The notes under the pieces were generated by a model that was not told the DNA's origin, made no database searches, and saw only the letters and a program-made list of their open reading frames with translations. Shown in pieces: positions 8,503 through 53,015 of a DNA stretch of 64,000 nt. The position numbers were made by a program, and so were the translations under genes. Every line of letters begins with the position of its first letter. Position 1 is the stretch's first letter. The DNA is from a virus: the IMG/VR virus record IMGVR_UViG_3300042396_000723, positions 1 through 64,000 of that record. One strand, written 5' to 3'.

Positions 8503-8539
8503 CTAAACAATGAAAATGATATAATTAATAATAACAAAA

Positions 8540-11059: not shown

Positions 11060-11190
11060 GTCTTACTTTGTCAAGTAGTTTTACTTTAGTATTACTTATA
11101 GGTTTATACTGTTTTACAGAATTACAATTAATCTTACTTATATGTCTTACTATTCGTTTTACATCGTGCTACACTTGAAGGTAAGACACA
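11060..11190. repeat. iteron cluster B: repeated GTTTTAC and CTTACTTATA(T/G)G motifs upstream of the RHH gene
   Basis: TGTCAAGTAGTTTTAC, ATTACTTATAGG, TCTTACTTATATGTCTTAC, CGTTTTAC and inverted GTAAGACA all within about 130 bp. Confidence 0.55.
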
Positions 11191-11204
11191 GAAGGAGTAA
11201 ACCG

Positions 11205-11567
11205 ATGGCGGCTAACAAATTAATTAACTTTCGATGCCCTGATGACTTACTTGCTGCAATAGAAGCCTACGGACGGGAACACTACCCTAACGGTCGGGGT
11301 AATACTGATTTTGACCAATCCAAAGCATTACGGGATATTCTAATTTCTGGCTTGGAGAGTTTAACCAATGGAGAAGTAAAGATAGAGAAAAAGGCTGACA
11401 AGCCCAAATCAAGCTATGCCGACCTATTGGATAGGATTGCCAAACTAGAGGCGCAGCAACCCACAGCTATTGATCCAACTATTATGGCGCGGCTAGATGC
11501 GATGGAGGCTGCAATCGCATTTGAGAAGGTGATGGGGATTTTGAAACAAATTGAAACCCCTAGTTGA
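11205..11567 (+). CDS. ribbon-helix-helix (CopG-like) transcriptional regulator
   Basis: GAAGGAG sits 7 nt upstream of the internal ATG; N-terminus MAANKLINFRCPDDLLAAIEAY fits an RHH fold; track start 11142 lies inside the iterons. Confidence 0.5.
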   Translation: MAANKLINFRCPDDLLAAIEAYGREHYPNGRGNTDFDQSKALRDILISGLESLTNGEVKIEKKADKPKSSYADLLDRIAKLEAQQPTAIDPTIMARLDAMEAAIAFEKVMGILKQIETPS

Positions 11568-11633: not shown

Positions 11634-11664
11634 AATGTTTGGTTTTAACTAAGTATTCTGCTAA

Positions 11665-12507
11665 TTACTCACCGATAATCATTTGGCGATCGCCTTTTTG
11701 ATTTGCCCATAATTCCCGAACCAATTCAACAGATTCAGCCGGAATATAGTCAGTCTGAACCGGACGCATGGCTTTAGAAATTAGATGATCATGTCCGCAA
11801 GATTCTAACCATTTTTCCAACTCCTTGCCAGACTTGAATTTTAATTCCTTGCCAAGTTGAGCTAAGGACTTCCCACGAAATACAGCTAACTGTTTTCCGT
11901 CTTCATTCATAACAACCGACTCGAATTGGGTTTCGGTTTCTCTCACCACCGCTTCGGGGCGACCTTGAATGAGTGCTAACATTCCTGCACCGTGAATGGT
12001 GACGATAGAGGCACTGGATTCTAAAACAAATCGCTGATCTTTCATGGAACTGGCTTGGGCTTCGGCAATTCGGACTTGCAACCGGAGTGCTTCTAATTCA
12101 TCGTGTTGCTGAGGAATGACGGTTTCCGCTTCACGGGTTTTAACAACAAAGTAAGATTGAGCTTGAGCGATTTCCGGTTTGCGGACATCACCATTCATGG
12201 CGATAAGATATGCCGCGTAACGAGACAGCTTATAGTCCTCTTGTCTACTTCCCCCTCCCTGTGGGCGTTTTACCAGATTGTCGGCTCCGGCAAAATGGTT
12301 TTCCGTCAACTCTCCTTGAATTTGACATGACACAATTGCCCGTTGAATCGCATCAGCAAATCTTTTCCATTGTCCATACCCTAATAACCCCATCAACTCC
12401 CGTGCCAACCAATACTCGCAACCTTCACGGTCAATGCGCTTAATGGAATCAAAAGGGGATTTGGATTGATTGTGATCTTGATTGCCAGACAATGCTAAAC
12501 TAGACAT
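11665..12507 (-). CDS. Bro-N domain protein (DinD-like, DNA-damage-inducible/antirepressor family)
   Basis: CEYWLARELMGLLGYGQWKRFADAIQRA matches the Bro-N core; start placed at the internal ATG preceded by AAAGGAGGG rather than the track's 12642. Confidence 0.55.
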   Translation of the reverse strand: MSSLALSGNQDHNQSKSPFDSIKRIDREGCEYWLARELMGLLGYGQWKRFADAIQRAIVSCQIQGELTENHFAGADNLVKRPQGGGSRQEDYKLSRYAAYLIAMNGDVRKPEIAQAQSYFVVKTREAETVIPQQHDELEALRLQVRIAEAQASSMKDQRFVLESSASIVTIHGAGMLALIQGRPEAVVRETETQFESVVMNEDGKQLAVFRGKSLAQLGKELKFKSGKELEKWLESCGHDHLISKAMRPVQTDYIPAESVELVRELWANQKGDRQMIIGE

Positions 12508-12699
12508 GGGAAACCCTCCTTTGGGTTTTTGTAAGTAATTTTTGAGAAAAGCTGGAGACTTACTACTTCCTCCGGCTTTTCTCATTCCTATATTATACAC
12601 CAAATTAACAGGAGCTTGAATAAAAAACGGGGTATTTAGCAAGTAAATAATATTAAAATTGTGCGGTGGTAAATTACATTAAATACCCTACAATAATCC

Positions 12700-13035
12700 C
12701 TAAATATCCCCATTACCTTCATCTTCTAAACTTTGGATATGCTCAAATACTACGCCCGTTTGATAGATTTGTTCATGGAGTGTGGCAATGGCTTTAACCG
12801 TCTCTACTGCCATCCTTCCGTGAATATGCGTCCCTGATTTGGTTAACTTGCCACAGGCTTTCATTGGGTCATCGCTCTTGGATGCTTGACTATAAGCCTT
12901 TGCACTAACAGCAATAGAAGATGATGCGATTACGTCTAACCCACGCAAATAAACCTCCATCCTTTTGATTCCATCCTCAAGATCCTTTTTATACTTCTCT
13001 CTATTTTCCTCAATCATTGATTTAATTGCCTCCAT
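12700..13035 (-). CDS. hypothetical protein (possibly longer, with N-terminal HTH; see findings)
   Basis: 111-aa ATG ORF; 51 in-frame codons upstream encode an HTH-like segment without an ATG/GTG/TTG. Confidence 0.45.
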   Translation of the reverse strand: MEAIKSMIEENREKYKKDLEDGIKRMEVYLRGLDVIASSSIAVSAKAYSQASKSDDPMKACGKLTKSGTHIHGRMAVETVKAIATLHEQIYQTGVVFEHIQSLEDEGNGDI

Positions 13036-13276
13036 TTTTTCGTTAATAATCTCTCGTTTCCTTTCTTCCCAAATGGGTTGTTTTTTCCAGTGTCTTATTA
13101 TCCCTTCTGAAACTCCAATCTGACTGGCAACCTCTCTGTTGGACAGGGATGGGTTGTCAAGAAATGCCTTAACAGCATCTTTGATCAGATGTGCCTTACC
13201 TCCCTTTATTTCGCAACCTTACGCAATAACAACACTTTAAAGTTAACATAGTTGAAAACATTGCTACAACTTAAAT

Positions 13277-13927
13277 ATGAGTAAACTTAAAATTACTGAG
13301 ACTGATATCTCTAAATTGACCCCTGATCCTAACAATGCAAGGAAAAGAACGCCCTTATCAGCAAGCGTTATTAGGAAATCAATTGAACAATTTGGGATGA
13401 CTCGGAGCATTGTCACCGATGAAAATGGCGTTATTTTGGCGGGTAACGGGGCGTTTGAAGAAGCGGGTCAATTGGGTATTGAAAGGGTGATCGTCGTCGA
13501 AACAACGGGTAATGAGATAGTGGCGGTGAAACGGACAAACCTTACTGCCGAACAGAAAACTCAATATGCCATTGCTGATAATACGGCTTCTGATTTCTCA
13601 ACATGGGATTTTGATATTTTGAGTGAGTTAACTCAGGAAATTGATCTATCTGAGTTTTTCCCTGATGATAAATTGAATGAATTATTAAAACAATTGGGGG
13701 ATAGCAAGAATGAAGGTATCAATGTTTTCCCTGATTATATCAACATGGACGATCAGGATGTAGAGACAACAGCAGAAAATTTTAGCTCGAATGTTAAGAG
13801 GAGTATAATTATTGATTTTCCTGCCGATGAGTATGACGAAGCTAAAAAACTATGTAACACAGCAAAGAAAAAAGGAGAAGATATTGGTGCTATTTTAGTA
13901 TCTGCACTAAAAGATGTTTTACAATAG
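13277..13927 (+). CDS. ParB/Srx-fold (ParB N-terminal domain-like) protein
   Basis: N-terminal ISKLTPDPNNARK...VILAGNGAFEEAGQLGIERVIVV resembles the ParB N-domain but with GNGA in place of GERR; acidic C-terminus. Confidence 0.55.
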   Translation: MSKLKITETDISKLTPDPNNARKRTPLSASVIRKSIEQFGMTRSIVTDENGVILAGNGAFEEAGQLGIERVIVVETTGNEIVAVKRTNLTAEQKTQYAIADNTASDFSTWDFDILSELTQEIDLSEFFPDDKLNELLKQLGDSKNEGINVFPDYINMDDQDVETTAENFSSNVKRSIIIDFPADEYDEAKKLCNTAKKKGEDIGAILVSALKDVLQ

Positions 13928-13951
13928 AGAACGAACCAGTAACCTGTACAA

Positions 13952-14746
13952 ATGAAAGAACAAAAATTAATAGTAACAAAACATGACTACAAAAGAAATG
14001 ATAGCCCAACAAGCCTCATTCCGAACGTAGTAGACTCAACTGTATTCCTTGATTCTATCGGTAACAAAGTTGGATTTTATCTCAGGAGTTTGCCGGATGA
14101 TGTTAATGATGTTTTAGAATATTGCAACAAAGAACTAAGAAGTGACAGAGTACCTAAATCGACAATGCACAGACAATTGCCACTGGGAACTAAAAGCAAG
14201 ACAGGAGCGTGGGAATATGATACTGTCGAACAGGAGTCTGTGATAATCGGATCTGTACCCGCAAAGCCTCACCAAAGAAGACCTTTTAATTCAATAAGTC
14301 AAGTTCATTTAAAAAATTCAGCGTCTGCTTTTATTAAAGGAATGATAGTATTAGCAAAGCTGTCAGAGAATCTGATTAAAGATATTATGCCAGAGCAGTA
14401 TTTTATTCAGAAAAAAATAATAGAAGAAAATGTTTTAAAAAAATTTAGATTTGGAGATTTATTTACTAGCTCTATTAGCAATTATAATATAGCTGCTAAT
14501 TATCATCAGGACAATAGAAATCTCAAGAACACTGTAAATGTTATTTACTCAAAAAAAGAAAATGCCAGTGGTGGAAATCTTCATGTGCCAGACTATGATT
14601 TGGTTTTTGATAGTGTTGACGGATCAATGATCTGTTATCCGGCATGGGCAAACTTACACGGAGTTACACCTATTTTACCCACAAAGAAAGGTGGATACAG
14701 GAATGGTATTGTTTTTTATCCATTAGGAGGTTTGCACAAAGAATAG
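13952..14746 (+). CDS. hypothetical protein, possible 2OG-Fe(II) dioxygenase fold
   Basis: C-terminal H-Q-D (YHQD), a distal His (LHGV) about 50 aa later and Arg (YRNGIVFY) fit the HxD...H...R spacing; weak assignment. Confidence 0.3.
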   Translation: MKEQKLIVTKHDYKRNDSPTSLIPNVVDSTVFLDSIGNKVGFYLRSLPDDVNDVLEYCNKELRSDRVPKSTMHRQLPLGTKSKTGAWEYDTVEQESVIIGSVPAKPHQRRPFNSISQVHLKNSASAFIKGMIVLAKLSENLIKDIMPEQYFIQKKIIEENVLKKFRFGDLFTSSISNYNIAANYHQDNRNLKNTVNVIYSKKENASGGNLHVPDYDLVFDSVDGSMICYPAWANLHGVTPILPTKKGGYRNGIVFYPLGGLHKE

Positions 14747-14822
14747 ATAAAAACATATGAATACTACGATTTTGTTGCATATTGAGGTTAACATAATCAT
14801 AAACCCTTCTACAACTTAAAAT

Positions 14823-15470
14823 ATGAGTAAGCCTAAAATTACTGAGACAGGTATCAGCAAGTTGACGCTATCTATTCACGAAACATTTCAACAAACGATT
14901 CAAGGTGAAGGGTTTTGGTCTGGGACTCCGTGCGATTTCATCCGATTACACGGGTGTCCGGTGGGGTGTTGGTTTTGTGATACTGGGTATAGTTCACAAG
15001 AAACAGTTAAGCCTCCATCAAAAACTTTTAAAACTCTCGACAATTTACTCAGGGAGTTAAAATCTGAGCATATTGTGATATCAGGCGGGGAACCTTTTAT
15101 CCATAAAGAGTTGCCCGAATTGGTTGATGCTCTTAATGATGCTGATAAATTTGTTGCGATTGAGACATCAGGGAGTTTTTTTCAACCCGTTAAAGACACC
15201 TGGATAACCCTTTCCCCAAAAGAACATCTAAATGATCGTTACCCCGTTTTAGACGAGCTATGGGGACTCGCTAACGAAATAAAATTAATTATCTCCACAG
15301 GGCAGGAGATTGATTTTTACAAGAAAAAGTTAGATGCGTTAAATATTCCTATCTACTTACAGCCGGAATGGAATGGCATAAATAAAACCCTTCCTTTAAC
15401 AATTGAATTAGTGATAGAATATAAGTATAGACTTTCTTTGCAAACTCACAAATTAATAGGGGTTCAATAA
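14823..15470 (+). CDS. queE: 7-carboxy-7-deazaguanine synthase QueE (radical SAM)
   Basis: TIQGEG followed by CPVGCWFC (Cx3Cx2C) cluster; length 215 aa. Confidence 0.8.
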   Translation: MSKPKITETGISKLTLSIHETFQQTIQGEGFWSGTPCDFIRLHGCPVGCWFCDTGYSSQETVKPPSKTFKTLDNLLRELKSEHIVISGGEPFIHKELPELVDALNDADKFVAIETSGSFFQPVKDTWITLSPKEHLNDRYPVLDELWGLANEIKLIISTGQEIDFYKKKLDALNIPIYLQPEWNGINKTLPLTIELVIEYKYRLSLQTHKLIGVQ

Positions 15471-15880
15471 TGTGGACACTGGTTAAGAAATTCACCTTTG
15501 AAGCGGCACACCAACTAACTAAACATCAAGGCAAATGCTCAAGACTTCATGGACATAGTTGGGTTGGATATGTTTATGTTTCAGGTGATAACCTAAAACA
15601 ATCAGGTAGTGAAGCGGGGATGGTGATGGATTATGGCGAAATTAAAAAAGTTATCAATCTTTTGGTCGATAATTATTTAGACCACCATTTTTTAAATGAT
15701 ACGACAAAACTAGAAAACCCTACCAGTGAAGAAATAGCGAGATGGATTTATGATCGAATCAAGCTCAAGCTCCCAGGACTTACAGCAATCAGAATCGATG
15801 AAACTTGCACAAGTCAATGCTTCTACTCTGAACTCAGTGATTTCTCTAGTAGAATCCGCAATGGTGACATTATGGGGTGA
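15470..15880 (+). CDS. queD: 6-carboxy-5,6,7,8-tetrahydropterin synthase QueD
   Basis: FTFEAAHQL...CSRLHGHSW...LDHHFLND...ENPTSEEIARWIY...ETCTS, hallmark QueD/PTPS motifs. Confidence 0.8.
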   Translation: MWTLVKKFTFEAAHQLTKHQGKCSRLHGHSWVGYVYVSGDNLKQSGSEAGMVMDYGEIKKVINLLVDNYLDHHFLNDTTKLENPTSEEIARWIYDRIKLKLPGLTAIRIDETCTSQCFYSELSDFSSRIRNGDIMG

Positions 15881-16373
15881 ACTACCAGAAGGAATGAAAG
15901 AGACACCTTCTAGGGTTGTTAAATACTGGGTAGAGATGTCTCAAGGTATAGGCGTTGATCCTTCCGAGTCTTTGAGTAAAGTTTTTGATTGTGGATATGA
16001 CCAGGTAGTGATTGAAAAGGGTATTCCTTTCACTTCATTATGTGAACATCACCTATTACCCTTTTACGGTGTTGCTCATATTGGCTATATTCCTAATCAA
16101 AAAGTTGTAGGGTTATCAAAACTCCCAAGGGTTTTAGAGGTGTTGGCAACACAACCCCAAATTCAAGAAAGATTAACTGAACAGATGGGCGATTTGATTT
16201 TTGATAAGTTGAGTTGTAAAGGTGTTGTAGTAATTTTAGAAGCGGAACATAATTGTATGAGTTGTAGGGGAGTTAAAAAGCATGGGGTGAAAACTATCAC
16301 CAGTTGTTTAAGAGGTGTTTTTATGACTGATTCCGCAGCCAGGGCAGAAGTTTTAAACCTGATTAAAGGATGA
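15798..16373 (+). CDS. folE: GTP cyclohydrolase I FolE
   Basis: CEHHLLPF, GLSKLPR, QPQIQERLT and EAEHNCM motifs; start uncertain (in-frame alternatives 15750 or 15861); overlaps the queD 3' end in another frame. Confidence 0.75.
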   Translation: MKLAQVNASTLNSVISLVESAMVTLWGELPEGMKETPSRVVKYWVEMSQGIGVDPSESLSKVFDCGYDQVVIEKGIPFTSLCEHHLLPFYGVAHIGYIPNQKVVGLSKLPRVLEVLATQPQIQERLTEQMGDLIFDKLSCKGVVVILEAEHNCMSCRGVKKHGVKTITSCLRGVFMTDSAARAEVLNLIKG

Positions 16374-16557
16374 CATGAGAATACATTTGATTATTCCTAT
16401 TAAGGGGGGATGCAAGTTGACTTTGCATCAAATGTTTTATTAGAACAGGAGTACACCAATAATTTATTCTCTTTTGCTTATCAAGAGTACGAAAAATATC
16501 AGCATCAGTATTGGAATGGATTAATTAATCGCGTCAACAGTACAAGGAATGAAAACA

Positions 16558-17268
16558 ATGGCTGATAAATGTTTGGTAATTTTAAGCGGCGGTCAAGATA
16601 GTACGACTTGCTTGGCGATCGCAAAAAGTAAATTCAAAGAAGTTCACGCAGTAACTTTTAATTATGGTCAACGGCATTTAACCGAAATTGAGAGCGCGAT
16701 CAAAATAGCTGAAAAGTTAAACTTAGCTTCCCATGAAATTATCGATCTAGGTCAGGGGATTTTAAAAGGTAGCTCCCCACTGGTCAGCAACAACGAATTG
16801 GGAGTTTATAAGAATGTTGATGAATTACCTGGCGGGGTAGAACCAACTTTTGTTTATAGCAGGAATATTTTATTTTTAACTATTGCATCTAATCGCGCCG
16901 CCGTTATGGGTATTAATGATATCTTTATCGGTGTCTGTGAAGCTGATTATGCGGGTTATTTTGATTGCAGACTAGATTTTATCAATGTCATGTCGAAAGC
17001 GTTAGGAGAGGGTGTTTATGGTTCGCCCGATGCTTTTAAAATTCATACTCCGTTAATGAGCTTAACTAAAGCCGAATCGGTATTATTAGCTAAGGATTTA
17101 TTGGGTGATGATTTTGATTCAGTGATGGAATTAACCCATACTTGTTATGCGGGTGTTAAGGGCGGATGTGGTAAATGTCACGCTTGTTTGATTCGTGACA
17201 GAGGTTTTCAAGAGGCGGGAATAGTTGACCCAATATGGAAGTTTAGAAATGTATCTGTATTTAGTTGA
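16558..17268 (+). CDS. queC: 7-cyano-7-deazaguanine (preQ0) synthase QueC
   Basis: PP-loop SGGQDS and C-terminal zinc motif CYAGVKGGCGKCHAC; internal ATG preferred over track start 16549. Confidence 0.85.
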   Translation: MADKCLVILSGGQDSTTCLAIAKSKFKEVHAVTFNYGQRHLTEIESAIKIAEKLNLASHEIIDLGQGILKGSSPLVSNNELGVYKNVDELPGGVEPTFVYSRNILFLTIASNRAAVMGINDIFIGVCEADYAGYFDCRLDFINVMSKALGEGVYGSPDAFKIHTPLMSLTKAESVLLAKDLLGDDFDSVMELTHTCYAGVKGGCGKCHACLIRDRGFQEAGIVDPIWKFRNVSVFS

Positions 17269-18361
17269 TCACTCATCCGAACGCGGACAACGCAAAGTTC
17301 TTACTGAGGAGAGATATATAAGCTATTTGCAATCCTACGCATTCGTTGGACAAGCGGGTTTTATTGACACTCAAAAATATTGGGAGGAGTTATTGAGGAT
17401 TCATTTAGCTGATACAACAGCAAAACTAAATGGTGACGTTAACATAAAAGAAGTTTTAGTTGATGAAAACAAACCAGAACATCTGTTTAGTTATGCCTAC
17501 CAAAACCACGAATCTCAATGGTCTGATTCTTGGAATCAGACCATTGAGAAAAACAAGAATATGAATATACATTTAGCGGGTCATTCTGTTAACGTTGACA
17601 TGGACAAAGTGGTGAAGCCTTTACATGAAAACCATTTAACAACATTTGCAGACCAGAAAGAAGTTAAAGATACTTTGTCCATTTTGGACAAAGTATCTGA
17701 CTTAAGACCTAGAGTAATAATTGACTCAGGAGCATTTACAGCTTTTACAACTGGGAAAATAATTAATCCTAAAGATTATGCTACATGGTCTTTAGACTTT
17801 CAGAAGCGATGGGAGCATAAAATGAAATCTCTAAGTTTTATGAACCTGGACGTTATTGGTAATCAAGATGATAGCTGGAAAAATCAATCAATACTTGAAT
17901 CGTTAGGAATGAAACCGATTCCTATTATTACTTTTGGATGTGATAAAAAGCATTTAATTAGAGCATTAGATAACTATGATTATATAGCTTTAGGCGGTTT
18001 AGTTCCCCATAGTAGGAATAAAATCAAACTTCAAAAATGGTTAGATTATTGTTTCAACATAATCATGGGAAGATATAAAGAAACGGGTGTTATGTCAAGG
18101 ATTCATTTACTCGGTATAACAACTGATTGGGTACTGAAAAGATATCCCTGCTATAGTTCAGATTCGTCATCATGGGTTGCTTGTTTAAGGTTTGGCGGCG
18201 GTGCTGCTGCGGGTTTAGATAAAATACCCAGATATAAAGAATCAGATGCCGCGTTATCAGCAACAATTCACACTTTACGATCAGAGGTAGTAAAATATAA
18301 AAAGATGGAAACTGAAGCAACAAATTTATGGAAATCAAGGGGAATAATCTGGGATGACTAA
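17249..18361 (+). CDS. dpdA: DpdA-like DNA-guanine transglycosylase (TGT superfamily)
   Basis: VIIDSGAFT (cf. TGT DSGGFQ), YIALGGL and RIHLLGIT motifs; sits directly after preQ0 genes; ATG at 17249 preferred over TTG 17225. Confidence 0.65.
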   Translation: MYLYLVDHSSERGQRKVLTEERYISYLQSYAFVGQAGFIDTQKYWEELLRIHLADTTAKLNGDVNIKEVLVDENKPEHLFSYAYQNHESQWSDSWNQTIEKNKNMNIHLAGHSVNVDMDKVVKPLHENHLTTFADQKEVKDTLSILDKVSDLRPRVIIDSGAFTAFTTGKIINPKDYATWSLDFQKRWEHKMKSLSFMNLDVIGNQDDSWKNQSILESLGMKPIPIITFGCDKKHLIRALDNYDYIALGGLVPHSRNKIKLQKWLDYCFNIIMGRYKETGVMSRIHLLGITTDWVLKRYPCYSSDSSSWVACLRFGGGAAAGLDKIPRYKESDAALSATIHTLRSEVVKYKKMETEATNLWKSRGIIWDD

Positions 18362-19028
18362 TTATAAAGTTGAGCGTGGGGTTTTGGTTGATAGTATTGA
18401 TATTGAACCTAACCCGTGGAACCCCAACAAAACATCTGAACGTCAGCAAGAGGCGATCACAGAATCATTAAATGCCTACGGTCAAATCATAGAATTACTG
18501 GTTAGACCGCATCCAGAAAAAAAGGGTAAATATCAAGTTATTGACGGGGAACATCGTTTAATCTCATTGAGCAACAAAGAGCAAAAAATCTTTGTTAATA
18601 TTATTTACGACTTACCCGATGTCGAAGCAAAGAAATTAACCATTATCCTCAATGAAACCAGGGGTGATGCTGATAAAATCGAACTTGCTAAACTATTGGA
18701 AGATATAAATAATGATTTAGGGATTGAAACGATCATAGGGTTGCCATACAGTTCTAATGAATTGGATGAGTTAATAAAATTAGCTGATATTGATTGGGAT
18801 AATTTTGCTAAGGGTGATGATGGTGACGAATTTGATGAAAATGATCCTACGACTGAATCATCGGAATGGATTACTGTAGTTGTTAAAATCCCTTCTGATG
18901 CGATGGAGAGAATACAAGATGTGTACAACATCGTAAAAGATGAAAGGGGTACTTTACACAAAGATAAAGCGATTGCATGGGGACAGGTTTTGGAGTCTAT
19001 GTCTGCTGATTACTTAGCTGGAAAATAG
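18354..19028 (+). CDS. ParB/Srx-fold (ParB-like nuclease domain) protein
   Basis: IDIEPNPWNPNK...QVIDGEHRL resembles the ParB/sulfiredoxin DGxHR core; overlaps the dpdA stop by 8 nt. Confidence 0.55.
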   Translation: MTNYKVERGVLVDSIDIEPNPWNPNKTSERQQEAITESLNAYGQIIELLVRPHPEKKGKYQVIDGEHRLISLSNKEQKIFVNIIYDLPDVEAKKLTIILNETRGDADKIELAKLLEDINNDLGIETIIGLPYSSNELDELIKLADIDWDNFAKGDDGDEFDENDPTTESSEWITVVVKIPSDAMERIQDVYNIVKDERGTLHKDKAIAWGQVLESMSADYLAGK

Positions 19029-19105
19029 GAATAATTGAACCTAAATTAATCGGGAGATTGCCAGACTAATTAATATTAATTGTGGTACAATAGTTAATAG
19101 AAATC

Positions 19106-19141
19106 GCCCTTCGCGGTACGTCAAATACCCAAGGGCTGTAA
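19106..19141 (+). promoter_or_regulatory. conserved 5' leader stem-loop motif, copy 2
   Basis: GCCCTTCGCGGTACGTCAAATACCCAAGGGCTGTAAACC about 25 nt upstream of the 19162 start; shares CGCGGTRCGT...ACCCARGGG...TAAACC with copy 1. Confidence 0.35.
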
Positions 19142-19161
19142 ACCTAACTAACAGGATCACA

Positions 19162-19431
19162 ATGAATAACTTTAACAAAGAACTGGCTTTAAGTTTACTC
19201 GGATCTGGTAAAGAATACCCCGTTGATTTTGAAGACGCTTGGCAATGGTTGGGATATTCGAGTAAACAGGCTGCCAAAAAGAAGCTAACCCGCAACTTTG
19301 AACAAGAGGAAGACTATTTATCCGAATGGATGAAAACCCCAGATGGCGGTCGTCCTAGCGAATCCATCTATCTCACCGTCGATTGTTTCAAGGCATTAGG
19401 GATTGATTGTTTTAATGTGTTATACTATTAA
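19162..19431 (+). CDS. antirepressor N-terminal (AntA-like) fragment, candidate exon 1
   Basis: 89 aa; VDFEDAWQWLGYS...SIYLTVDCFKALGI resembles the start of phage antirepressor N-domains and stops where the homing-endonuclease gene begins. Confidence 0.4.
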   Translation: MNNFNKELALSLLGSGKEYPVDFEDAWQWLGYSSKQAAKKKLTRNFEQEEDYLSEWMKTPDGGRPSESIYLTVDCFKALGIDCFNVLYY

Positions 19432-20165
19432 AACAATCACACAACACTTTAACAATAAATGAACATCGAAATATCTTCTGTTACGCCCCATCTAATTGAA
19501 GATTTAGCTAAGACAGGAATTTATTCTATTACACAAAAGAGTACGGGAAGAAAATATATAGGGAGTACATCGGAAAATTTTTACCAAAGATGGAGGCGAC
19601 ATTTAAGCGAACTAAAAAAAGGTAATCACCATAGCCAGTTTTTGCAACGAACCTGGGATAAATATGGCTCCGATGATTTTGTATTTGAGATTATTGAATT
19701 TCACGACGTACTATCTGTTTTAGATAATTTATCTTTATTGAATTTAGAACAGTCTTATTTGGATAAATTAACTCCAGAGTTCAATATTTCACCTTCTGCA
19801 CATAGTAGAAAAGGGGTGAAAGTATCGGAAGAAACCCGCACTAGAATCAAAGAAGCAAGAAAATATCAAGTAATGAAACCCGTTAAAGAAGAAACAAAGA
19901 AAAGAATTTCAGAATCAAATAAAGGAAAACATGAGGCAAGTATTGAAACTAGAAGAAAAATGGCTGAAGCAAAAAGAGGATTACCACTTAGGGCTATAAA
20001 TACTTATGTCTTAACATCTCCACTTGGTGTTGATATCACGGTAAATAACCTAAAAGATTTTTGTCGAGAAAATAATCTGAATTATCAAAACCTTTTTCAT
20101 GTTATAAGAGGGAATAGAAAATCTTCTCAGGGATGGAAAATAGTCAAGATAAATCCCTAGAGATG
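19412..20165 (+). mobile_element. candidate HEG-containing intervening sequence (possible group I intron) in antirepressor gene
   Basis: GIY-YIG ORF lies exactly between the two antirepressor halves; boundaries are inferred from the protein break, not from intron structure. Confidence 0.3.
19459..20160 (+). CDS. GIY-YIG homing endonuclease with NUMOD3-like repeats
   Basis: GIYSIT...KYIGST, RWRRHL, and repeated S-E-x-T/N-K-G-K motifs (VSEETRTRIKEARK / ISESNKGKHEASIETRRKMAEAKRG). Confidence 0.85.
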   Translation: MNIEISSVTPHLIEDLAKTGIYSITQKSTGRKYIGSTSENFYQRWRRHLSELKKGNHHSQFLQRTWDKYGSDDFVFEIIEFHDVLSVLDNLSLLNLEQSYLDKLTPEFNISPSAHSRKGVKVSEETRTRIKEARKYQVMKPVKEETKKRISESNKGKHEASIETRRKMAEAKRGLPLRAINTYVLTSPLGVDITVNNLKDFCRENNLNYQNLFHVIRGNRKSSQGWKIVKINP

Positions 20166-20687
20166 TCAGGGACGGAGCAAGGGAAGAAAACCCGACAATA
20201 TTTCCTGCGGTGCGAGAAGGAGTTGAAAAACACTCATGGAATTAATTTACTAGACAAGCCTTCACCTCAACTGATTAGTGATGCGGTTATGGCAGTTTTC
20301 CGACCCACCAATGTTGACCCAACACTTATCTCAGGGGTCATTGCCAACAACATCGCTAAAACTTATCCGGCGCTAGCTCCTGCGATGGAAGAATCCAAAA
20401 AACATCTGACCGTCGAAGTCGAGGGAAAACTTCTCACGCCCACCGAACTCGGATTAATCTTAGAACAGCGCACTGGTGTTAAACACAGTGGCAGACGAGT
20501 TAATCAATTGTTAGCCGAGAATGGATTGCAAACTCCTAACCCCGCGGGGAAAGATCCGGCTTGGGTTCCAACTCCAGAGGGGAGTGCTTTTTCTAAACTG
20601 TTACTTGCAGCGCAGAAGGGCGTTAAGGATGCGACTAGACAACATTTGCAGTGGTTTGAATCTGTTGTAGATGTTTTGGCGGTTTAG
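20163..20687 (+). CDS. antirepressor C-terminal part (KilAC-like), candidate exon 2
   Basis: EQGKKTRQYFLRCEKEL resembles the conserved R-x-YFI-x-E segment ending antirepressor N-domains; LTPTELGLILEQRTGVKHSGRRVNQLLAENGLQ is KilAC-like. Confidence 0.4.
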   Translation: MSGTEQGKKTRQYFLRCEKELKNTHGINLLDKPSPQLISDAVMAVFRPTNVDPTLISGVIANNIAKTYPALAPAMEESKKHLTVEVEGKLLTPTELGLILEQRTGVKHSGRRVNQLLAENGLQTPNPAGKDPAWVPTPEGSAFSKLLLAAQKGVKDATRQHLQWFESVVDVLAV

Positions 20688-20704
20688 AAGGTTGAAATAG
20701 CAAA

Positions 20705-20735
20705 AACCCCAGGGGTTGAGTCCTGGGGTTTTTAA
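20705..20735 (+). terminator. intrinsic terminator
   Basis: ACCCCAGG/CCTGGGGT 8-bp stem followed by TTTTT. Confidence 0.75.
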
Positions 20736-20941
20736 GGGTTATGGCGTGGTCTAACAGTATCCTTTCTCTCTCAAGTCTTGGATTTCATGAAATCCCCAGA
20801 ATTGCTTAACAGGGATAAAACCATCTTTTGTTATTACCCGCACTTTTTTCTCGGTTTCAATAACCTCGACAACAACATTTCCAAAAAACTCAAATCCAAC
20901 CTTGATCCAGTTTGCGTTCATTTTTTGCTCCGTATAATTCG

Positions 20942-21193
20942 CTAACAGTCTGTTGACAATATCGTTCCGTGTTCCCTATTCTGTCTTTCCTTGTCTCGTC
21001 GTCTTTCGGCACATAACCGCTTCTGTTCGCGCCGATTTTCCTTTTGTTCTGGGGTTAAGTTGGCAAGGTAGCGTTTCCGCCGTTCCCTTGCCTTCTCCGT
21101 CCCCTCGTACTTCAGATCCCTGTCTTTACCCTTCTGGGTTGCCTTATACCGTTGTTGGGCTTCCCAGAGGGAGGGTTTCCATTCTTTGGTCAT
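20942..21193 (-). CDS. small basic repeat protein (family member 1)
   Basis: MTKEWKPSLWEAQQRYKATQKGKDRDLKYEGTEKARERRKRY; paralogous to 22033-22236 and 24491-24694; start at in-frame ATG. Confidence 0.4.
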   Translation of the reverse strand: MTKEWKPSLWEAQQRYKATQKGKDRDLKYEGTEKARERRKRYLANLTPEQKENRREQKRLCAERRRDKERQNREHGTILSTDC

Positions 21194-21468
21194 GTGATAA
21201 ACCACCAATATTTCTTAATTCCCGTGCTTTTCCCGTTGTTGGGACAATCCCCTTCACCCATAACGAGGTTTCCGTCATTGGTGGGATAACCGTCTTCAGT
21301 TTCCCCGACTATTGACAACATGGCTCTATTTAGTGTTTGGATTGAGCAAATAACGTCTTTTTCTTCTTTGAGTTTTTGGGCTAATTCTTTGGTAGAAACC
21401 CCGTCAATCCATCCGGGGTCGCTGTCAATTATCCCCTTGATTTTTGTTTTTAATTGTTCTATTTTCAT
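21190..21468 (-). CDS. hypothetical protein
   Basis: 92-aa ORF with ATG preceded by AAAGGAGG. Confidence 0.5.
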   Translation of the reverse strand: MKIEQLKTKIKGIIDSDPGWIDGVSTKELAQKLKEEKDVICSIQTLNRAMLSIVGETEDGYPTNDGNLVMGEGDCPNNGKSTGIKKYWWFIT

Positions 21469-21538
21469 CTGTCCTCCTTTGTGCGTTTTGGTTTATTAAA
21501 TCCCTAGCCGTTTGGTGTTTGGCTAGGGTGTGGGGTTG

Positions 21539-21961
21539 TTAGATTGGTCGCCCTCTTTCGTCTCGGAGGTAAGGCAAATCATTTTCTTGATTAGCTTTAA
21601 CTTCTGTTTTAAAATTGTTCTCTTGCAACCACCGCCATAAAGCTCTCATTTCAGGTTTATTTTCATCTGTTAAGTCAAAATCACTTGTGATAGTTTGTCC
21701 ATCACCTTTACATCCCCACAGGATTTGAATTTGCTCAAATGGTGCAATTACGTTTACTTTCAAACCGTTTTGTTTTTGCGCTCTGTAACGGTCAACACCT
21801 TGTTGATACGTCGCTTTCCCCGCTTTTTTAGGGTATTTAGTAGATAAGGAGATTGTCTTTGCTCCGGCACACAAAAAACATCTTCCGTTGGCAATATGAG
21901 AAAATTCTTTCAAAAATCCTTTAGCGTCACATCTTGGGCAGTCTATTTGTTGGCAGTTCAT
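21539..21961 (-). CDS. hypothetical zinc-ribbon protein
   Basis: N-terminal CPRC...CFLC pairs; 140 aa. Confidence 0.5.
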   Translation of the reverse strand: MNCQQIDCPRCDAKGFLKEFSHIANGRCFLCAGAKTISLSTKYPKKAGKATYQQGVDRYRAQKQNGLKVNVIAPFEQIQILWGCKGDGQTITSDFDLTDENKPEMRALWRWLQENNFKTEVKANQENDLPYLRDERGRPI

Positions 21962-22000
21962 TGTTTCGTCCTTTGCTTTTGGGTGTTGTTCAATAATCTA

Positions 22001-22047
22001 AATATAGTAGACTTACGGCTATATGTCAACCCCTAAAATAAAATATT
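22001..22047 (-). promoter_or_regulatory. sigma70-like promoter (TTGACA-17-TATATT) with conserved upstream element, copy 1
   Basis: Minus-strand reading AATATTTTATTTTAGGGGTTGACA-17 nt-TATATT about 40 nt upstream of the 21961 start. Confidence 0.4.
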
Positions 22048-22236
22048 GTTTTTGCCTTTCCTGTGGCAAGTTCGGCACGTCGCAGGAGTTTTTGTTACGA
22101 GCCACTGAATCCGTCCACAGTGAAAACATTGACCCTTTCTATCGCCCCTCAACTCCTCTAACTTCTTCCTGTTCCGTTTGTTGTACTCAGTCCGGTTTTT
22201 TCTGCCCTTTTCTGAGTGGTTATAGTTGTCTGTCAT
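22033..22236 (-). CDS. small basic protein (family member 2)
   Basis: MTDNYNHSEKGRKNRTEYNKRNRKK...CFHCG...CRTC; ATG start; conflicts with plus-strand ORF 22023-22328, which was not chosen. Confidence 0.35.
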   Translation of the reverse strand: MTDNYNHSEKGRKNRTEYNKRNRKKLEELRGDRKGQCFHCGRIQWLVTKTPATCRTCHRKGKNNILF

Positions 22237-22324
22237 GTTATTATGAGTTAGTGGTTTTCTGTGACAAGTTCGCCACAAAGAAAGCCGGATCAATTGATCC
22301 GGCTTTTGGTTTGTTGCCTGAAAA

Positions 22325-22606
22325 TTAAAGCCAATCAGACCCCAAATTAAGAGCCGAATCGACTACGGCACCCTCAGGGAGTTCTTCTATTCCCAGTTCT
22401 TTAGCCATAGCGTCTTCGTCAAGACACGCATATCGGGCGCATTTTTTAGCTAATTCATAAAAGTCTTCATGCACCCAGTAGCCCCATTGACAGTCATACT
22501 GACCGCCAGAGATAAAACGATAGTGATTCTCTATCAATTTTTGTCTGTGATCTTCTAGTGAAACAAAAGCGTTTTCGATTTCCAATCCTTTGCTGTAGTC
22601 TTTCAT
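22325..22606 (-). CDS. hypothetical protein
   Basis: Start moved to the internal ATG because the track's TTG start at 22669 lies inside the -35 hexamer. Confidence 0.45.
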   Translation of the reverse strand: MKDYSKGLEIENAFVSLEDHRQKLIENHYRFISGGQYDCQWGYWVHEDFYELAKKCARYACLDEDAMAKELGIEELPEGAVVDSALNLGSDWL

Positions 22607-22639
22607 CTTGTTTGCTTGGTATTTTCTGTGACTTCCTAA

Positions 22640-22687
22640 ATAGTACACGGTGACAAGTTGTATTGTCAACCCCTAAAATAAAATATT
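22640..22687 (-). promoter_or_regulatory. sigma70-like promoter with conserved upstream element, copy 2
   Basis: The same 24-mer TGTCAACCCCTAAAATAAAATATT (plus strand) as at 22024-22047; minus reading TTGACA-18 nt-TACTAT. Confidence 0.4.
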
Positions 22688-22735
22688 TTTTAGATTGACT
22701 GAACCCCTTGCTATGTAAGGAGTTCAGTCTTTTGG

Positions 22736-23029
22736 TTAATCCTCAAATTTTGCCTTGAGAGCCAGCATAGCCTTTTTCTTCTTATGCCTTAAATAAGATT
22801 CGGCATCGGTCAATTTCCTGCCTGGAAAAATAGACGGTCTCCCTATAGGCTTAGGATCAGTTTTGGGATGAATCCTCGGTCTTCCCACGGGCTTAGGATC
22901 GGAGGTTTGGGACGCTCCGCAGGGGGTACAGCGCCATTTTTGCCGACCATCAGGACGCACCCCGTTCTTTTTCATCCTATGCCCACACTTTGGACAGGAC
23001 AGATGTTTTTCCGTGTTATCGTTGATCAT
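22736..23029 (-). CDS. zinc-ribbon (InsA-like) plus AT-hook-like DNA-binding protein
   Basis: CPKCGHRMKKNGVRPDGRQKWRCTPCG zinc ribbon, then PKPVGRPRIHP and PKPIGRPSIFPGRK GRP motifs. Confidence 0.5.
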   Translation of the reverse strand: MINDNTEKHLSCPKCGHRMKKNGVRPDGRQKWRCTPCGASQTSDPKPVGRPRIHPKTDPKPIGRPSIFPGRKLTDAESYLRHKKKKAMLALKAKFED

Positions 23030-31081: not shown

Positions 31082-31633
31082 ATGATTATACAACAACTTT
31101 CACTATTTGAAACACAACCCGTAATTCTTGATTCAAACGAAAATTATACCCCGTCTGATTTGATTGATTTAGTCCATGAGTTTTATGGATTTCCTGAATT
31201 AGACCCTTTTAGCTGTGAACTTGCCAACCGAACGGTAAAAGCTCAAAAGATATTTACAATTCAAGATGATGGATTCAAACAGAACTGGAGACGGGCTAAA
31301 ACACTCTGGTTAAACCCTCCCTACAGCGCGGGATTTATTGAGAAGGTTGTTGATAAATTGATTGCAACATTGAACGAGACTGAAGCGGAAGCATTCTTGT
31401 TAACCAATACCGACAACAGTACGGTTTGGTACAAAAAGGCTTTGAATCGGTGCGATCGCTTCTGTCTACCGTCAACTCGGTTAACTTTTTATTCCCCAAG
31501 ACGGGCAGTGGAGGGGAAGAAACAAAACCAAAACCGATTCTCCCAAACTCTATTTTATTTCGGATTGCAACCTCAAAGATTTGAGGAAATTTTTGAGGGT
31601 TGGGGAACTGTTTGTCAGACTTCTAAATGGTAA
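31082..31633 (+). CDS. phage Dam-like DNA N6-adenine methyltransferase
   Basis: LNPPYS motif IV (N/DPPY) in a 183-aa protein, the size of phage Dam-family enzymes. Confidence 0.5.
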   Translation: MIIQQLSLFETQPVILDSNENYTPSDLIDLVHEFYGFPELDPFSCELANRTVKAQKIFTIQDDGFKQNWRRAKTLWLNPPYSAGFIEKVVDKLIATLNETEAEAFLLTNTDNSTVWYKKALNRCDRFCLPSTRLTFYSPRRAVEGKKQNQNRFSQTLFYFGLQPQRFEEIFEGWGTVCQTSKW

Positions 31634-31640
31634 AAAATAA

Positions 31641-31667
31641 CCCCTGTAAATTAATTTACAGGGGTTT
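31641..31667. terminator. bidirectional intrinsic terminator
   Basis: Perfect 24-bp palindrome CCCCTGTAAATTAATTTACAGGGG flanked by A- and T-tracts. Confidence 0.75.
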
Positions 31668-51420: not shown

Positions 51421-51984
51421 ATGACCGCAGCAACCAAGAAGATAATTGAAAGAATCTTAAAAATTGGTGAGTGGGTAGAGATTGACCCACATAAACACCG
51501 CCCATCTTATCTAATAAGAGGTACAGCATGGCGAGTTGAAAGTTTCAATGTATTAAAACAAACCTGTCAAGTAACTAACGAAAAAACCAGATCGGAAACC
51601 CTAGACTTTGAGGAGGTTTCCGACTCATCCCCATTCAAAAAAACAGATATTGTGCAATTAAAAAAGGATAGCCGTTACATCGGACGGGTGATTATGTGCC
51701 GGGGGAATAAAATCAAAATTCAGTGGGCGAAAGGATTGGCAGAATCCTTAGACTCGGACAAGATAAAACTATTTATTCAGATGGTCAAAGGGGAACAAAT
51801 CCCCCTCGGAAATTACGCTTTCCAGAAAGGCGATCATGTCAAAACTACAGACAAGAATTTTGGCAATGTAATCCTCACTGTAAAAGAATGCTTACCCTCT
51901 GGAATGGTGGTGTTGAGTTCATCAAACGATCCTAATTTATTGCTCCCCGGCTGTGGCTTAACAATTGTTGAGGAGGGTTTCTAA
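51421..51984 (+). CDS. hypothetical protein
   Basis: 187-aa ORF. Confidence 0.5.
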   Translation: MTAATKKIIERILKIGEWVEIDPHKHRPSYLIRGTAWRVESFNVLKQTCQVTNEKTRSETLDFEEVSDSSPFKKTDIVQLKKDSRYIGRVIMCRGNKIKIQWAKGLAESLDSDKIKLFIQMVKGEQIPLGNYAFQKGDHVKTTDKNFGNVILTVKECLPSGMVVLSSSNDPNLLLPGCGLTIVEEGF

Positions 51985-53015
51985 TGCCAACATTCGCAAC
52001 ATTATTCATGGGCGGAGGCGGTGCAGATTTGGGGTTAGAGGCCGCAGGGTTTAAGTCTTTATGGGGAATTGAAAGAGATCCTAAAATTGCAGAAGTAGCA
52101 CGATTAAATTTCCCAAATACCAAAGTATTTAATTCTTGCGCAGGAGACATAAACCCCCGCAGTCTTCCCTATGTTGACCTGCTTTGGATGAGTCCCCCGT
52201 GCCAACAGTATTCAAACGCTAGACGGGGTAATTTAGGCGATCACAAAGACAAGGACGCGGGGCTGTACTGTAGCAGTTATATCGCAGCGATTGATCCTCG
52301 ATGGGTAGTTTTAGAAAACGTCCCTGGCTACTCAAAATCACCTGTATTCGAGAAAATCCTACAATCCTTAATTCGCCACGGATATCGCTATCATTGGTTA
52401 ATACTTGACGCGGCGGATCACGGGGTTCCCCAAAACCGGAAACGGTTGATTATGTGGGCAGTTAAAAATGATCAACCTCTCCCCTATTTCCCCGAATCAA
52501 AACCCAAAAAGGGATGGTATCAAGCCATTGCTGACTTAATCCCAGAAATGCAGGACTGTGAGCTTGCAGACTGGCAGATTAAGCGACTAAATGAATTGGG
52601 TTATTTACCAGAAAAAGCCTGGATTGATATTGGGAAACAACTCATTAGACAGGCTACAGTTCGGGAGTCAAACGATCCAAGTTTTACTATTGTGAGTGGT
52701 CATGTTAACTCGCATTCTCCTATCCTGTTAATCCCCCGAGCGGGAGCTTGCATCAAGAATATTCTCCCGACTCCACAGAACAAACCCTGCCCAACAATTC
52801 GAGCTATGAAGGATGTTTCAACCCATTGGGCGGACATCGTGCAGGGAAGCCAAATTAAACGAATTAGTCAGAAAGCGACGGCACGGCTCCAGACTTTCCC
52901 CGACTCCTATCAATTCCCAGAATCCAAAACTTTAAGCCAACAAATAATAGGAAACGCCGTGCCTCCGTTATTGGCTAAAGAATTAGGTCTGGCAATCTTA
53001 AAATCAATTAACTAA
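51984..53015 (+). CDS. DNA (cytosine-5)-methyltransferase
   Basis: Motif I LFMGGGG, motif IV SPPCQQYS (PCQ), motif VI VLENVPG. Confidence 0.85.
   Translation: MPTFATLFMGGGGADLGLEAAGFKSLWGIERDPKIAEVARLNFPNTKVFNSCAGDINPRSLPYVDLLWMSPPCQQYSNARRGNLGDHKDKDAGLYCSSYIAAIDPRWVVLENVPGYSKSPVFEKILQSLIRHGYRYHWLILDAADHGVPQNRKRLIMWAVKNDQPLPYFPESKPKKGWYQAIADLIPEMQDCELADWQIKRLNELGYLPEKAWIDIGKQLIRQATVRESNDPSFTIVSGHVNSHSPILLIPRAGACIKNILPTPQNKPCPTIRAMKDVSTHWADIVQGSQIKRISQKATARLQTFPDSYQFPESKTLSQQIIGNAVPPLLAKELGLAILKSIN

Follow-up and report, generated by a model that had tools for sequence, protein, structure and literature searches.

The eight genes at positions 13277-19028 of the window, by which we mean the whole stretch of 64,000 nucleotides (nt) analysed here (positions 1 to 64,000 of the IMG/VR virus record IMGVR_UViG_3300042396_000723), probably constitute two independent post-replicative DNA base-modification modules, arranged in tandem where a cyanophage resembling Planktothrix phage PaV-LD has a recombination hot spot. 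Module 1 (13277-14746) comprises a small ParB-like protein, ParB1, and a Tet/JBP-family 2-oxoglutarate/Fe(II) dioxygenase of the 5-methylpyrimidine type (5mYOX). Module 2 (14823-19028) has the gene order QueE-QueD-FolE-QueC-DpdA-ParB2. The original prediction had described the same island as a single 7-deazaguanine system, in which a preQ0 pathway and the DNA transglycosylase DpdA were bracketed by two ParB-fold proteins and the oxygenase was a likely new component. All eight gene calls were confirmed, on the + strand and at or near the positions listed below. The bracketing was not: ParB1 goes with the oxygenase and ParB2 with DpdA.

13277..13927, + strand, ParB1, small ParB-like protein (phrog_620 4e-31; phrog_723 over the full length)
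13952..14746, + strand, Tet/JBP-family 5mYOX, predicted thymine dioxygenase (Pfam PF12851, Tet_JBP, 4e-8)
14823..15470, + strand, QueE, 7-carboxy-7-deazaguanine synthase of the radical S-adenosylmethionine (SAM) type (Pfam Radical_SAM 3e-13; phrog_2076 2e-33)
15470..15880, + strand, QueD, 6-carboxytetrahydropterin synthase (PF01242 4e-35; TIGR03367 102 bits, cut-off 89)
15861..16373, + strand, FolE, GTP cyclohydrolase I (PF01227 6e-61; TIGR00063 185 bits, cut-off 182)
16549..17268, + strand, QueC, preQ0 synthase without a glutamine-amidotransferase domain (PF06508 2.5e-60; TIGR00364 195 bits, cut-off 150)
17249..18361, + strand, DpdA-type DNA guanine transglycosylase, TIM barrel (phrog_887 6e-36)
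18354..19028, + strand, ParB2, CTPase-type ParB (Pfam ParB_N 1.5e-5; phrog_723 1e-23)

The island thus joins two already known kinds of phage DNA modification. New are the pairing of the two in tandem, the allelic exchange involving a ParB-methyltransferase gene, a divergent cyanophage DpdA clade accompanied by a CTPase-type ParB, and the palindromes that lie within dpdA.

Independence of the modules and the recombination scar

The window is colinear with PaV-LD (NC_016564), which was the only record with DNA similarity to the island in the phage collection searched. Positions 11656-13686 are 90.6% identical to PaV-LD 69178-71200; 840 bp of PaV-LD are then replaced by 5.35 kb (13686-19034), and homology returns at 19034, corresponding to PaV-LD 72039. 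The displaced gene, ORF098R, is a fusion of a ParB domain with an N6/N4 DNA methyltransferase (PADLOC MTase_II 3e-28), and residues 1-137 of ParB1 are orthologous to its ParB domain (90% nucleotide identity). The exchange left the following traces:

13237..13320, + strand, direct repeat copy A: about 40 nt of upstream sequence and ParB1 codons 1-15, inside the 90.6% PaV-LD block
14782..14866, + strand, direct repeat copy B: 5' sequence and codons 1-15 of what was once the ParB-methyltransferase gene, continuing in frame into QueE
19034..19187, + strand, residual 3' end of the displaced ParB-methyltransferase gene, followed by intergenic sequence and the first part of the homologue of PaV-LD ORF099R (80.6% identical to PaV-LD 72039-72191; ORF098R ends at 72074)

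The two copies of the 84-nt direct repeat (families D1 and D2) are spaced 1546 nt apart, are 77-83% identical, and mark the boundary between the modules. Within copy B, section 14810-14866 is 89.5% identical to PaV-LD 70779-70834. The copy B segment lies directly 5' of QueE in the sister phage L011 (L numbers denote the loci compared) and forms the start of an intact ParB-methyltransferase gene in L077. The annotated start of ORF098R itself is at 70950 and the frame opens no earlier than 70905, while DNA homology to the ParB1 start extends to 70791; in the PaV-LD record, ParB-domain codons ~1-40 are therefore out of frame, owing to a frameshift, pseudogene formation or a sequencing error.

Related phages carry different contents at this one locus, and every intermediate state is represented among them:

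PaV-LD: ParB-methyltransferase
L077: ParB, 5mYOX and ParB-methyltransferase
L084: ParB and 5mYOX only
L011 and L013: repeat segment joined straight to QueE...ParB2, with neither ParB1 nor 5mYOX
Window and L010: both modules

Such an allelic series indicates that whole modification chemistries are exchanged through recombination at the shared ParB 5' end. The wider survey gave the same result. None of 80 viral loci with a cyanophage-type 5mYOX had DpdA or QueC within 5 kb, the ParB and oxygenase cassette is spread over hundreds of phages without these genes, and among 66 viral DpdA loci a 5mYOX occurred only in the window's own phage. Module 2 is found without module 1 in L011 and about 25 other cyano-type loci. 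Because L011 has only the second module, L077 and L084 only the first, and no 5mYOX locus of the 80 combines the two, the modules are independent, and the oxygenase belongs to a separate cassette instead of being a new part of the deazaguanine pathway, as had been proposed. A pairwise comparison of ParB1 with ParB2 revealed no significant similarity.

Downstream, the island is adjoined by one more gene:

19459..20160, + strand, GIY-YIG/NUMOD3 homing endonuclease (Pfam GIY-YIG 3e-10; phrog_314 3e-28)

This gene is missing from PaV-LD, which has no match to 19187-20430, and from L011, which lacks 19253-22744; the endonuclease could promote co-conversion of the island. Scanning the island for sigma-70 promoters and terminators gave promoters no more often than expected from shuffled sequence, and no operon boundaries were obtained. 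An Rfam scan of 12800-20800 with E up to 1 returned no match, hence no preQ1 riboswitch or other known RNA is present there.

Gene content of the two modules

The first four enzymes of module 2, FolE, QueD, QueE and QueC, would convert GTP to preQ0. The full route proposed originally is supported, with QueE as a probable member: FolE, QueD and QueC exceed their NCBIfam cut-offs, and QueE is assigned by best match below the cut-offs; QueE carries the radical-SAM CxxxCxxC motif and an N-terminal QGEG, and starts only 76 nt past the oxygenase gene. The FolE frame is open from 15750, and the likely start at 15861 yields a protein of 170 residues, homologues having 161-173. QueF, Gat-QueC and ArcS were seen neither in the island nor among the window open reading frames (ORFs) scanned, and DpdC was not seen in the island. 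Since QueF is missing, dPreQ0 is the expected inserted base, in line with the original prediction: the DpdA-type transglycosylase would put preQ0 into phage DNA in exchange for guanine. Copies of the QueE-QueD-FolE-QueC-DpdA-ParB2 cassette occur in L007, in L008 and in about 25 IMG/VR loci, and the cassette is conserved in cyanophages and cyanobacterial prophages. The copy in L008, on the Chlorogloeopsis fritschii PCC 6912 chromosome, has a DUF6884 gene (11070-11480; PF21818 5e-41) between DpdA and ParB; it is prophage-like and lies beside IS605-family elements.

The transglycosylase gene shares 20 nt with QueC at its start and 8 nt with ParB2 at its end. Its product groups with DpdA and not with tRNA-guanine transglycosylase (TGT), as had been supposed. 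Among PHROG families it matches only the phage families phrog_887 and phrog_7068, and the family profile aligns with Rosebush gp2 (hhalign probability 99.3%, E 4e-20) and phiSM DpdA1 (99.2%, E 1e-19). The core is 31-36% identical to the DpdA proteins of CAjan and 9g (CAjan 31%; tblastn E 1e-19 and 2e-20). The protein has a TGT-type TIM-barrel fold with bacterial DpdA 7ui4 as the best structural match, and falls outside the bacterial bDpdA subfamily, there being no PADLOC, NCBIfam or PDB sequence match. Residues D159 (IDSGAF), F163, D201 (NLDV) and D305 (SSDSSSW) are invariant in 35 homologues, and the Asp motifs align with DSGAFS, LDVIGDQ and SVDSSGW of Rosebush gp2. Judging by motif and by the same D-x3-F spacing, these residues probably correspond to D95, F99, D130 and D256 of Salmonella DpdA. 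We found 258 homologues, mostly from cyanobacterial metagenomes and prophages, with no Pfam domain in any of the 120 matches listed. A scan of viral contigs with the single DpdA sequence retrieved near-identical relatives only, and an alignment-based scan gave a wider set.

Compared with the phage DpdA systems described in 2019 (PMC6884629), the window has the same five enzymes and likewise no QueF or amidotransferase; besides the profile match to its gp2, Rosebush too has a ParB-like gene directly beside DpdA. It differs in its cyanophage-specific DpdA clade, its gene order, and the extra N-terminal repeat units with perfect palindromes.

ParB2 is the conserved partner of this DpdA clade. It has 205 homologues, PF02195 being recorded in about 100 of the 120 matches listed. 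Both canonical ParB boxes, GxxR and ENxxR, are present: across the family, G65-E66-H67-R68 (DGEHR) never varies, nor do T102 and G104 of the NETRG box, whose other residues, N100, E101 and R103, reach 90% conservation or more. The AlphaFold2 (AF2) model of ParB2 (mean predicted local distance difference test score, pLDDT, 83.8) places a nucleotide-binding domain at residues 1-105 and three short helices at 108-153, the latter reaching into an acidic, disordered linker (151-169), after which comes a two-helix C-terminal domain (170-224); no helix-turn-helix (HTH) parS-binding domain was found in it. No ParA gene is annotated in PaV-LD or was found among the window ORFs scanned. The best Foldseek matches were the ParB proteins of Caulobacter, Bacillus and Myxococcus and CTP-bound ParB, Noc and KorB (E 6e-8 to 7bm8); Myxococcus and Caulobacter ParB have also been reported as the closest to 5mYOX-associated ParBs.

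In 43 of the 66 viral loci, some of these loci being near-duplicates, DpdA has a ParB-like gene as its immediate neighbour, downstream in 31 and upstream in 12. In Rosebush, gp1 (ParB) is followed by gp2 (DpdA), and in phiSM DpdA1 is followed by ParB; in the Acadian-type sister phages, the Rosebush-type gp1 ParB precedes a 5mYOX instead of DpdA. Bacterial DpdA requires the ParB-fold ATPase DpdB (Gedara et al. 2023, PMC10164549), and phiSM DpdA1 alone is inactive in E. coli (Cui et al., PMC10516641). By analogy with DpdB, ParB2, translationally coupled to DpdA, may act as a DNA-clamping activator or loader. No phage DpdA-ParB dependence was found described in the literature, and the two main phage deazaguanine papers do not mention ParB. 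The window resembles the bacterial DpdA-DpdB pair (PMC10164549) in combining a TGT-fold DNA preQ0 insertase with an adjacent ParB-fold NTPase partner. The suggestion that ParB2 is a shortened DpdB was, however, not sustained: ParB2 has DGEHR and NETRG in place of DGQQR, lacks an SspE-like C-terminal domain, gives no match to the PADLOC Dpd models, and is structurally closest to CTP-dependent segregation ParBs. Unlike bacterial Dpd systems, the window also has no DpdC-K genes and no restriction half.

The oxygenase of module 1 is assigned by its sequence to the Tet/JBP 5-methylpyrimidine dioxygenases. It has 2698 homologues. Among the 120 matches listed a single one is without a PF12851 record, and homologues sharing 50-98% identity with the window protein carry this domain. 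The iron triad H185-x-D187 and H236 and the 2-oxoglutarate-binding R250 show no variation across 20 sequences, among them those of actinophages. ParB1 ends 24 nt upstream. Among 70 assessable 5mYOX loci, a same-strand ParB-like gene was present in 69, adjacent in 16 and separated by one gene in 44; in MED4-117 and L079 the gene between ParB and 5mYOX encodes an FkbM-type methyltransferase. Phage 5mYOXs with a neighbouring ParB have been shown experimentally to be thymine dioxygenases (O'Toole et al. 2026, PMC13229309); in the same work, 5mYOX176 requires ParB176 on double-stranded DNA, and 5mYOX-associated ParBs have a nucleotide-binding and a C-terminal domain and no DNA-binding domain. By the same token, the window enzyme would oxidise DNA thymine to 5-hydroxymethyluracil, and ParB1 may assist it on double-stranded DNA.

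ParB1 appears to consist of a nucleotide-binding domain, an acidic linker and a C-terminal domain, the last being common to the ParBs that precede 5mYOX in L077 and MED4-117; by position and by this domain it seems to fit the 5mYOX-associated ParBs. At the position of the canonical GERR box it reads LAGNGAFEEA, that is, GNGA, as the original prediction had noted in calling two ParB-fold proteins. The window 5mYOX and ParB1 were likened to the experimentally tested proteins by published description only. On that footing, they share with 5mYOX clade C1 (5mYOX176/ParB176, PMC13229309) the Tet/JBP core with HxD...H and R, a small HTH-less ParB (nucleotide-binding domain, linker, C-terminal domain) just upstream, and no adjoining C5-methyltransferase. 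They differ in having a conserved N-terminal region instead of a C-terminal extension, in the absence of an adjoining kinase, glycosyltransferase or amino-acid transferase, and in the substitution of the Glu/Arg box of ParB1. The ParB-methyltransferase fusions (PaV-LD ORF098R, phrog_498; PMC12783734) are alike in locus, in the ParB N-terminal domain and in coupling a ParB fold with an enzyme that modifies bases after replication; the methyltransferase part has been replaced in the window, where ParB acts, if at all, in trans with the dioxygenase.

Some existing annotations of these families are misleading. In MED4-117 (L002, 4617-6741), CPWG_00024, labelled 'DNA methylase', is the ParB-like protein, and CPWG_00023 is the FkbM-type methyltransferase. 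Tet/JBP homologues (phrog_6059) are mislabelled 'queuine tRNA-ribosyltransferase' or 'DpdA-like' in many RefSeq/GenBank records, for instance those of cluster B mycobacteriophages.

Repeat units and palindromes within dpdA

The dpdA genes of this clade contain 0-4 extra in-frame copies of their own first beta-alpha-beta unit; in the window they occupy 17393-17698 (codons 49-150). Extra units or palindromes were noted in the window, L007, L008, L014, L015, L018, L019, L023 and L031. In the AF2 model, unit 1 forms part of the barrel and residues 51-150 are modelled with low confidence. The units could have been untranslated relics; this was ruled out by the proportions of nonsynonymous (pN) and synonymous (pS) differences, since pN (0.25-0.33) is far below pS (0.69-0.86), and the units are thus translated and constrained. 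In the three genes in which both units and palindromes were counted (window, L007 and L015), a perfect palindrome with arms of 11-18 nt closes every inserted unit. The window has two, with no strand assigned:

17513..17549, palindrome P1, perfect, 17-nt arms, 3-nt spacer, at the end of dpdA N-terminal repeat unit 2
17668..17698, palindrome P2, perfect, 14-nt arms, 3-nt spacer, 55 nt before the catalytic-Asp codon of dpdA

P1 has a folding z score of -8.9 as single-stranded DNA on both strands. In L014 and L015 it carries three substitutions, all of them compensated, and the spacer is flipped (ttg to caa or the reverse). At the P2 site (about -54 to -59 nt), a perfect palindrome of other sequence is found in L007, L014, L015, L018, L023 and L031. 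Counting the stem pairs with a hand-anchored script showed that all 14 stem positions vary, each with 2-3 Watson-Crick pair types, and that there is no mismatch and no G:T pair. Spacers flip between close relatives, from ttg to caa and from ttt to aaa. Palindrome density is 0.40/kb in the 750 nt before the DSGAF codon and 0.019/kb elsewhere in 850 kb, a roughly 21-fold difference. Pairing that is Watson-Crick throughout, together with the flipped spacers, favours a hairpin or cruciform formed by the DNA itself over an RNA element. We also considered parS sites for an HTH ParB and dispersed mobile repeats, and rejected both because P1 and P2 are unrelated in sequence, ParB2 has no HTH domain, and neither palindrome recurs elsewhere in the window. 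The ParB machinery could use the palindromes as structure-specific sites for loading or as recombination sites.

A short ORF between FolE and QueC resembles one of these units:

16410..16565, + strand, 51-codon ORF resembling one DpdA N-terminal repeat unit (LFSFAYQ...YW)

It has no Pfam match, a hairpin lies at its start (16409-16429), and it is probably a relic of cassette shuffling. In L015 an in-frame TAG (8531-8535) occurs just before P2, and L017 (7214-9080) and L025 (2-1476) have two overlapping DpdA ORFs. In these three loci the N-terminal units are cut off from the catalytic core, and assembly error, pseudogenisation or regulated expression may account for it. Perfect palindromes elsewhere in the window are found at 22281-22306 (26 bp) and 31639-31666 (28 bp); the latter lies directly 3' of a gene for a Dam-like methyltransferase and is probably a terminator.

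Alternative readings and biological meaning

Several results weigh against the assignments made above. The five best NCBIfam matches of QueE are all QueE models and all under cut-off (best TIGR04322, 124 bits against 200), and ParB1 is without the Glu and Arg of the GERR box. The PF12851 score of the dioxygenase, 33.0 bits, is 1.9 bits short of the cut-off of 34.9. Also missing is the C-terminal extension that is reported to be confined to ParB-dependent 5mYOXs (PMC13229309): together with all cyanophage-type homologues the enzyme stops 3-12 residues past the conserved FYPL strand, and the actinophage homologues (PRodriguez, Tonitrus) run about 45 residues further. For DpdA, Foldseek yielded generic TIM barrels only, the Pfam TGT, NCBIfam and PADLOC Dpd models gave no match, and phmmer and profile searches of PDB sequences found nothing relevant. 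No ParB is nearby in 20 of the 66 DpdA loci. In CAjan (L164), 9g (L165) and Microcystis phage Me-ZS1 (L166), no ParB stands by DpdA, and genes for a sliding clamp (processivity factor) and a DNA polymerase follow dpdA immediately. This arrangement, which in CAjan and 9g takes the place that ParB has in the window, suggests an alternative, replisome-coupled recruitment of DpdA to DNA. Since 9g DpdA is active alone in E. coli and some phages have no ParB beside DpdA, ParB dependence is not general; we infer two DpdA classes, ParB-associated and ParB-less, parallel to the 5mYOX case.

Another adverse point is that the phage encodes a C5-cytosine methyltransferase (51984-53015; PF00145 3e-54), which leaves 5-methylcytosine possible as the substrate of the dioxygenase. 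The enzyme might then be TET-like and oxidise the phage's own 5-methylcytosine instead of thymine, as do the phage TETs of clades A and B (PMC8256090); 5mYOX97 and 5mYOX176 oxidise both bases in vitro (PMC13229309). We regard this as doubtful. No C5-methyltransferase is immediately beside the dioxygenase, the nearest being 37 kb away, and PaV-LD has the C5-methyltransferase but no 5mYOX, therefore the two are not co-inherited; phage 5-methylcytosine dioxygenases adjoin a C5-methyltransferase, whereas ParB-linked ones are thymine dioxygenases (PMC13229309). Much harder to credit is a single system of the oxygenase and both ParBs, with the oxygenase acting further on the 7-deazaguanine once it is inserted. 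The genes are indeed adjacent and on the same strand, 76 nt from QueE, yet this reading is scarcely tenable in view of the 0/80 and 1/66 co-occurrences, the recombination scar between the modules, and the chemistry of a family that acts on the pyrimidine C5 methyl, to which preQ0 has no equivalent.

The transglycosylase could alternatively serve tRNA, the island boosting tRNA queuosine or preQ0 during infection. This is very improbable: besides the missing Pfam TGT match, the sequence has no zinc-site CxCxxC...H motif, its profile matches are DpdAs of phages with proven DNA modification, and it is translationally coupled to a DNA-associated ParB. It is somewhat less improbable, though still distinctly unlikely, that the ParB-like proteins simply serve the phage in partition or packaging, or as nucleases, and stand beside modification genes by chance or through the hot spot, with no part in catalysis. 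ParB-like genes are common in phages, the N-terminal domain of ParB1 derives by recombination from the ParB-methyltransferase gene, and mutations of the NTP residues of ParB176 have little effect (PMC13229309). Against this, the linkage is kept across very divergent lineages (43/66 and 69/70 loci), the ends of dpdA and parB2 overlap, the ParB2 model has no HTH domain, no ParA gene was found among the window ORFs scanned or in the PaV-LD annotation, and partner dependence has been shown experimentally for 5mYOX and bacterial DpdA. Two modules, each with its own ParB, remain the preferred reading.

On a broader scale, we propose tentatively, as something possible rather than probable, that HTH-less small ParBs are general cognate activators (CTP-gated clamps or loaders) for phage post-replicative base-modifying enzymes, including a large ParB-associated DpdA class beside the ParB-less, sliding-clamp-adjacent one. 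If this is true, the locus is a natural swap experiment, in which the ParB-headed site of sister phages is filled by a methyltransferase as a fusion, or by a thymine dioxygenase or guanine transglycosylase in trans. It would account for the inactivity of phiSM DpdA1, and perhaps of the DpdA3 and DpdA4 families, when expressed alone, and ParB partnering might rescue DpdA families that fail in heterologous assays. A requirement of phage DpdA for ParB would unify bacterial DpdA-DpdB, 5mYOX-ParB and the ParB-methyltransferase fusions.

Apart from the island, the window encodes the Dam-like N6-adenine methyltransferase (31082-31633; PF05869 2e-16), which, like the C5-cytosine methyltransferase, is also present in PaV-LD. 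If the predictions hold, guanine (as dPreQ0) and thymine (as 5-hydroxymethyluracil) would be modified post-replicatively in this phage, and with the two methyltransferases marks on cytosine and adenine are possible, so that all four bases may be altered. Such a four-base alteration would provide a broad shield against restriction and CRISPR.

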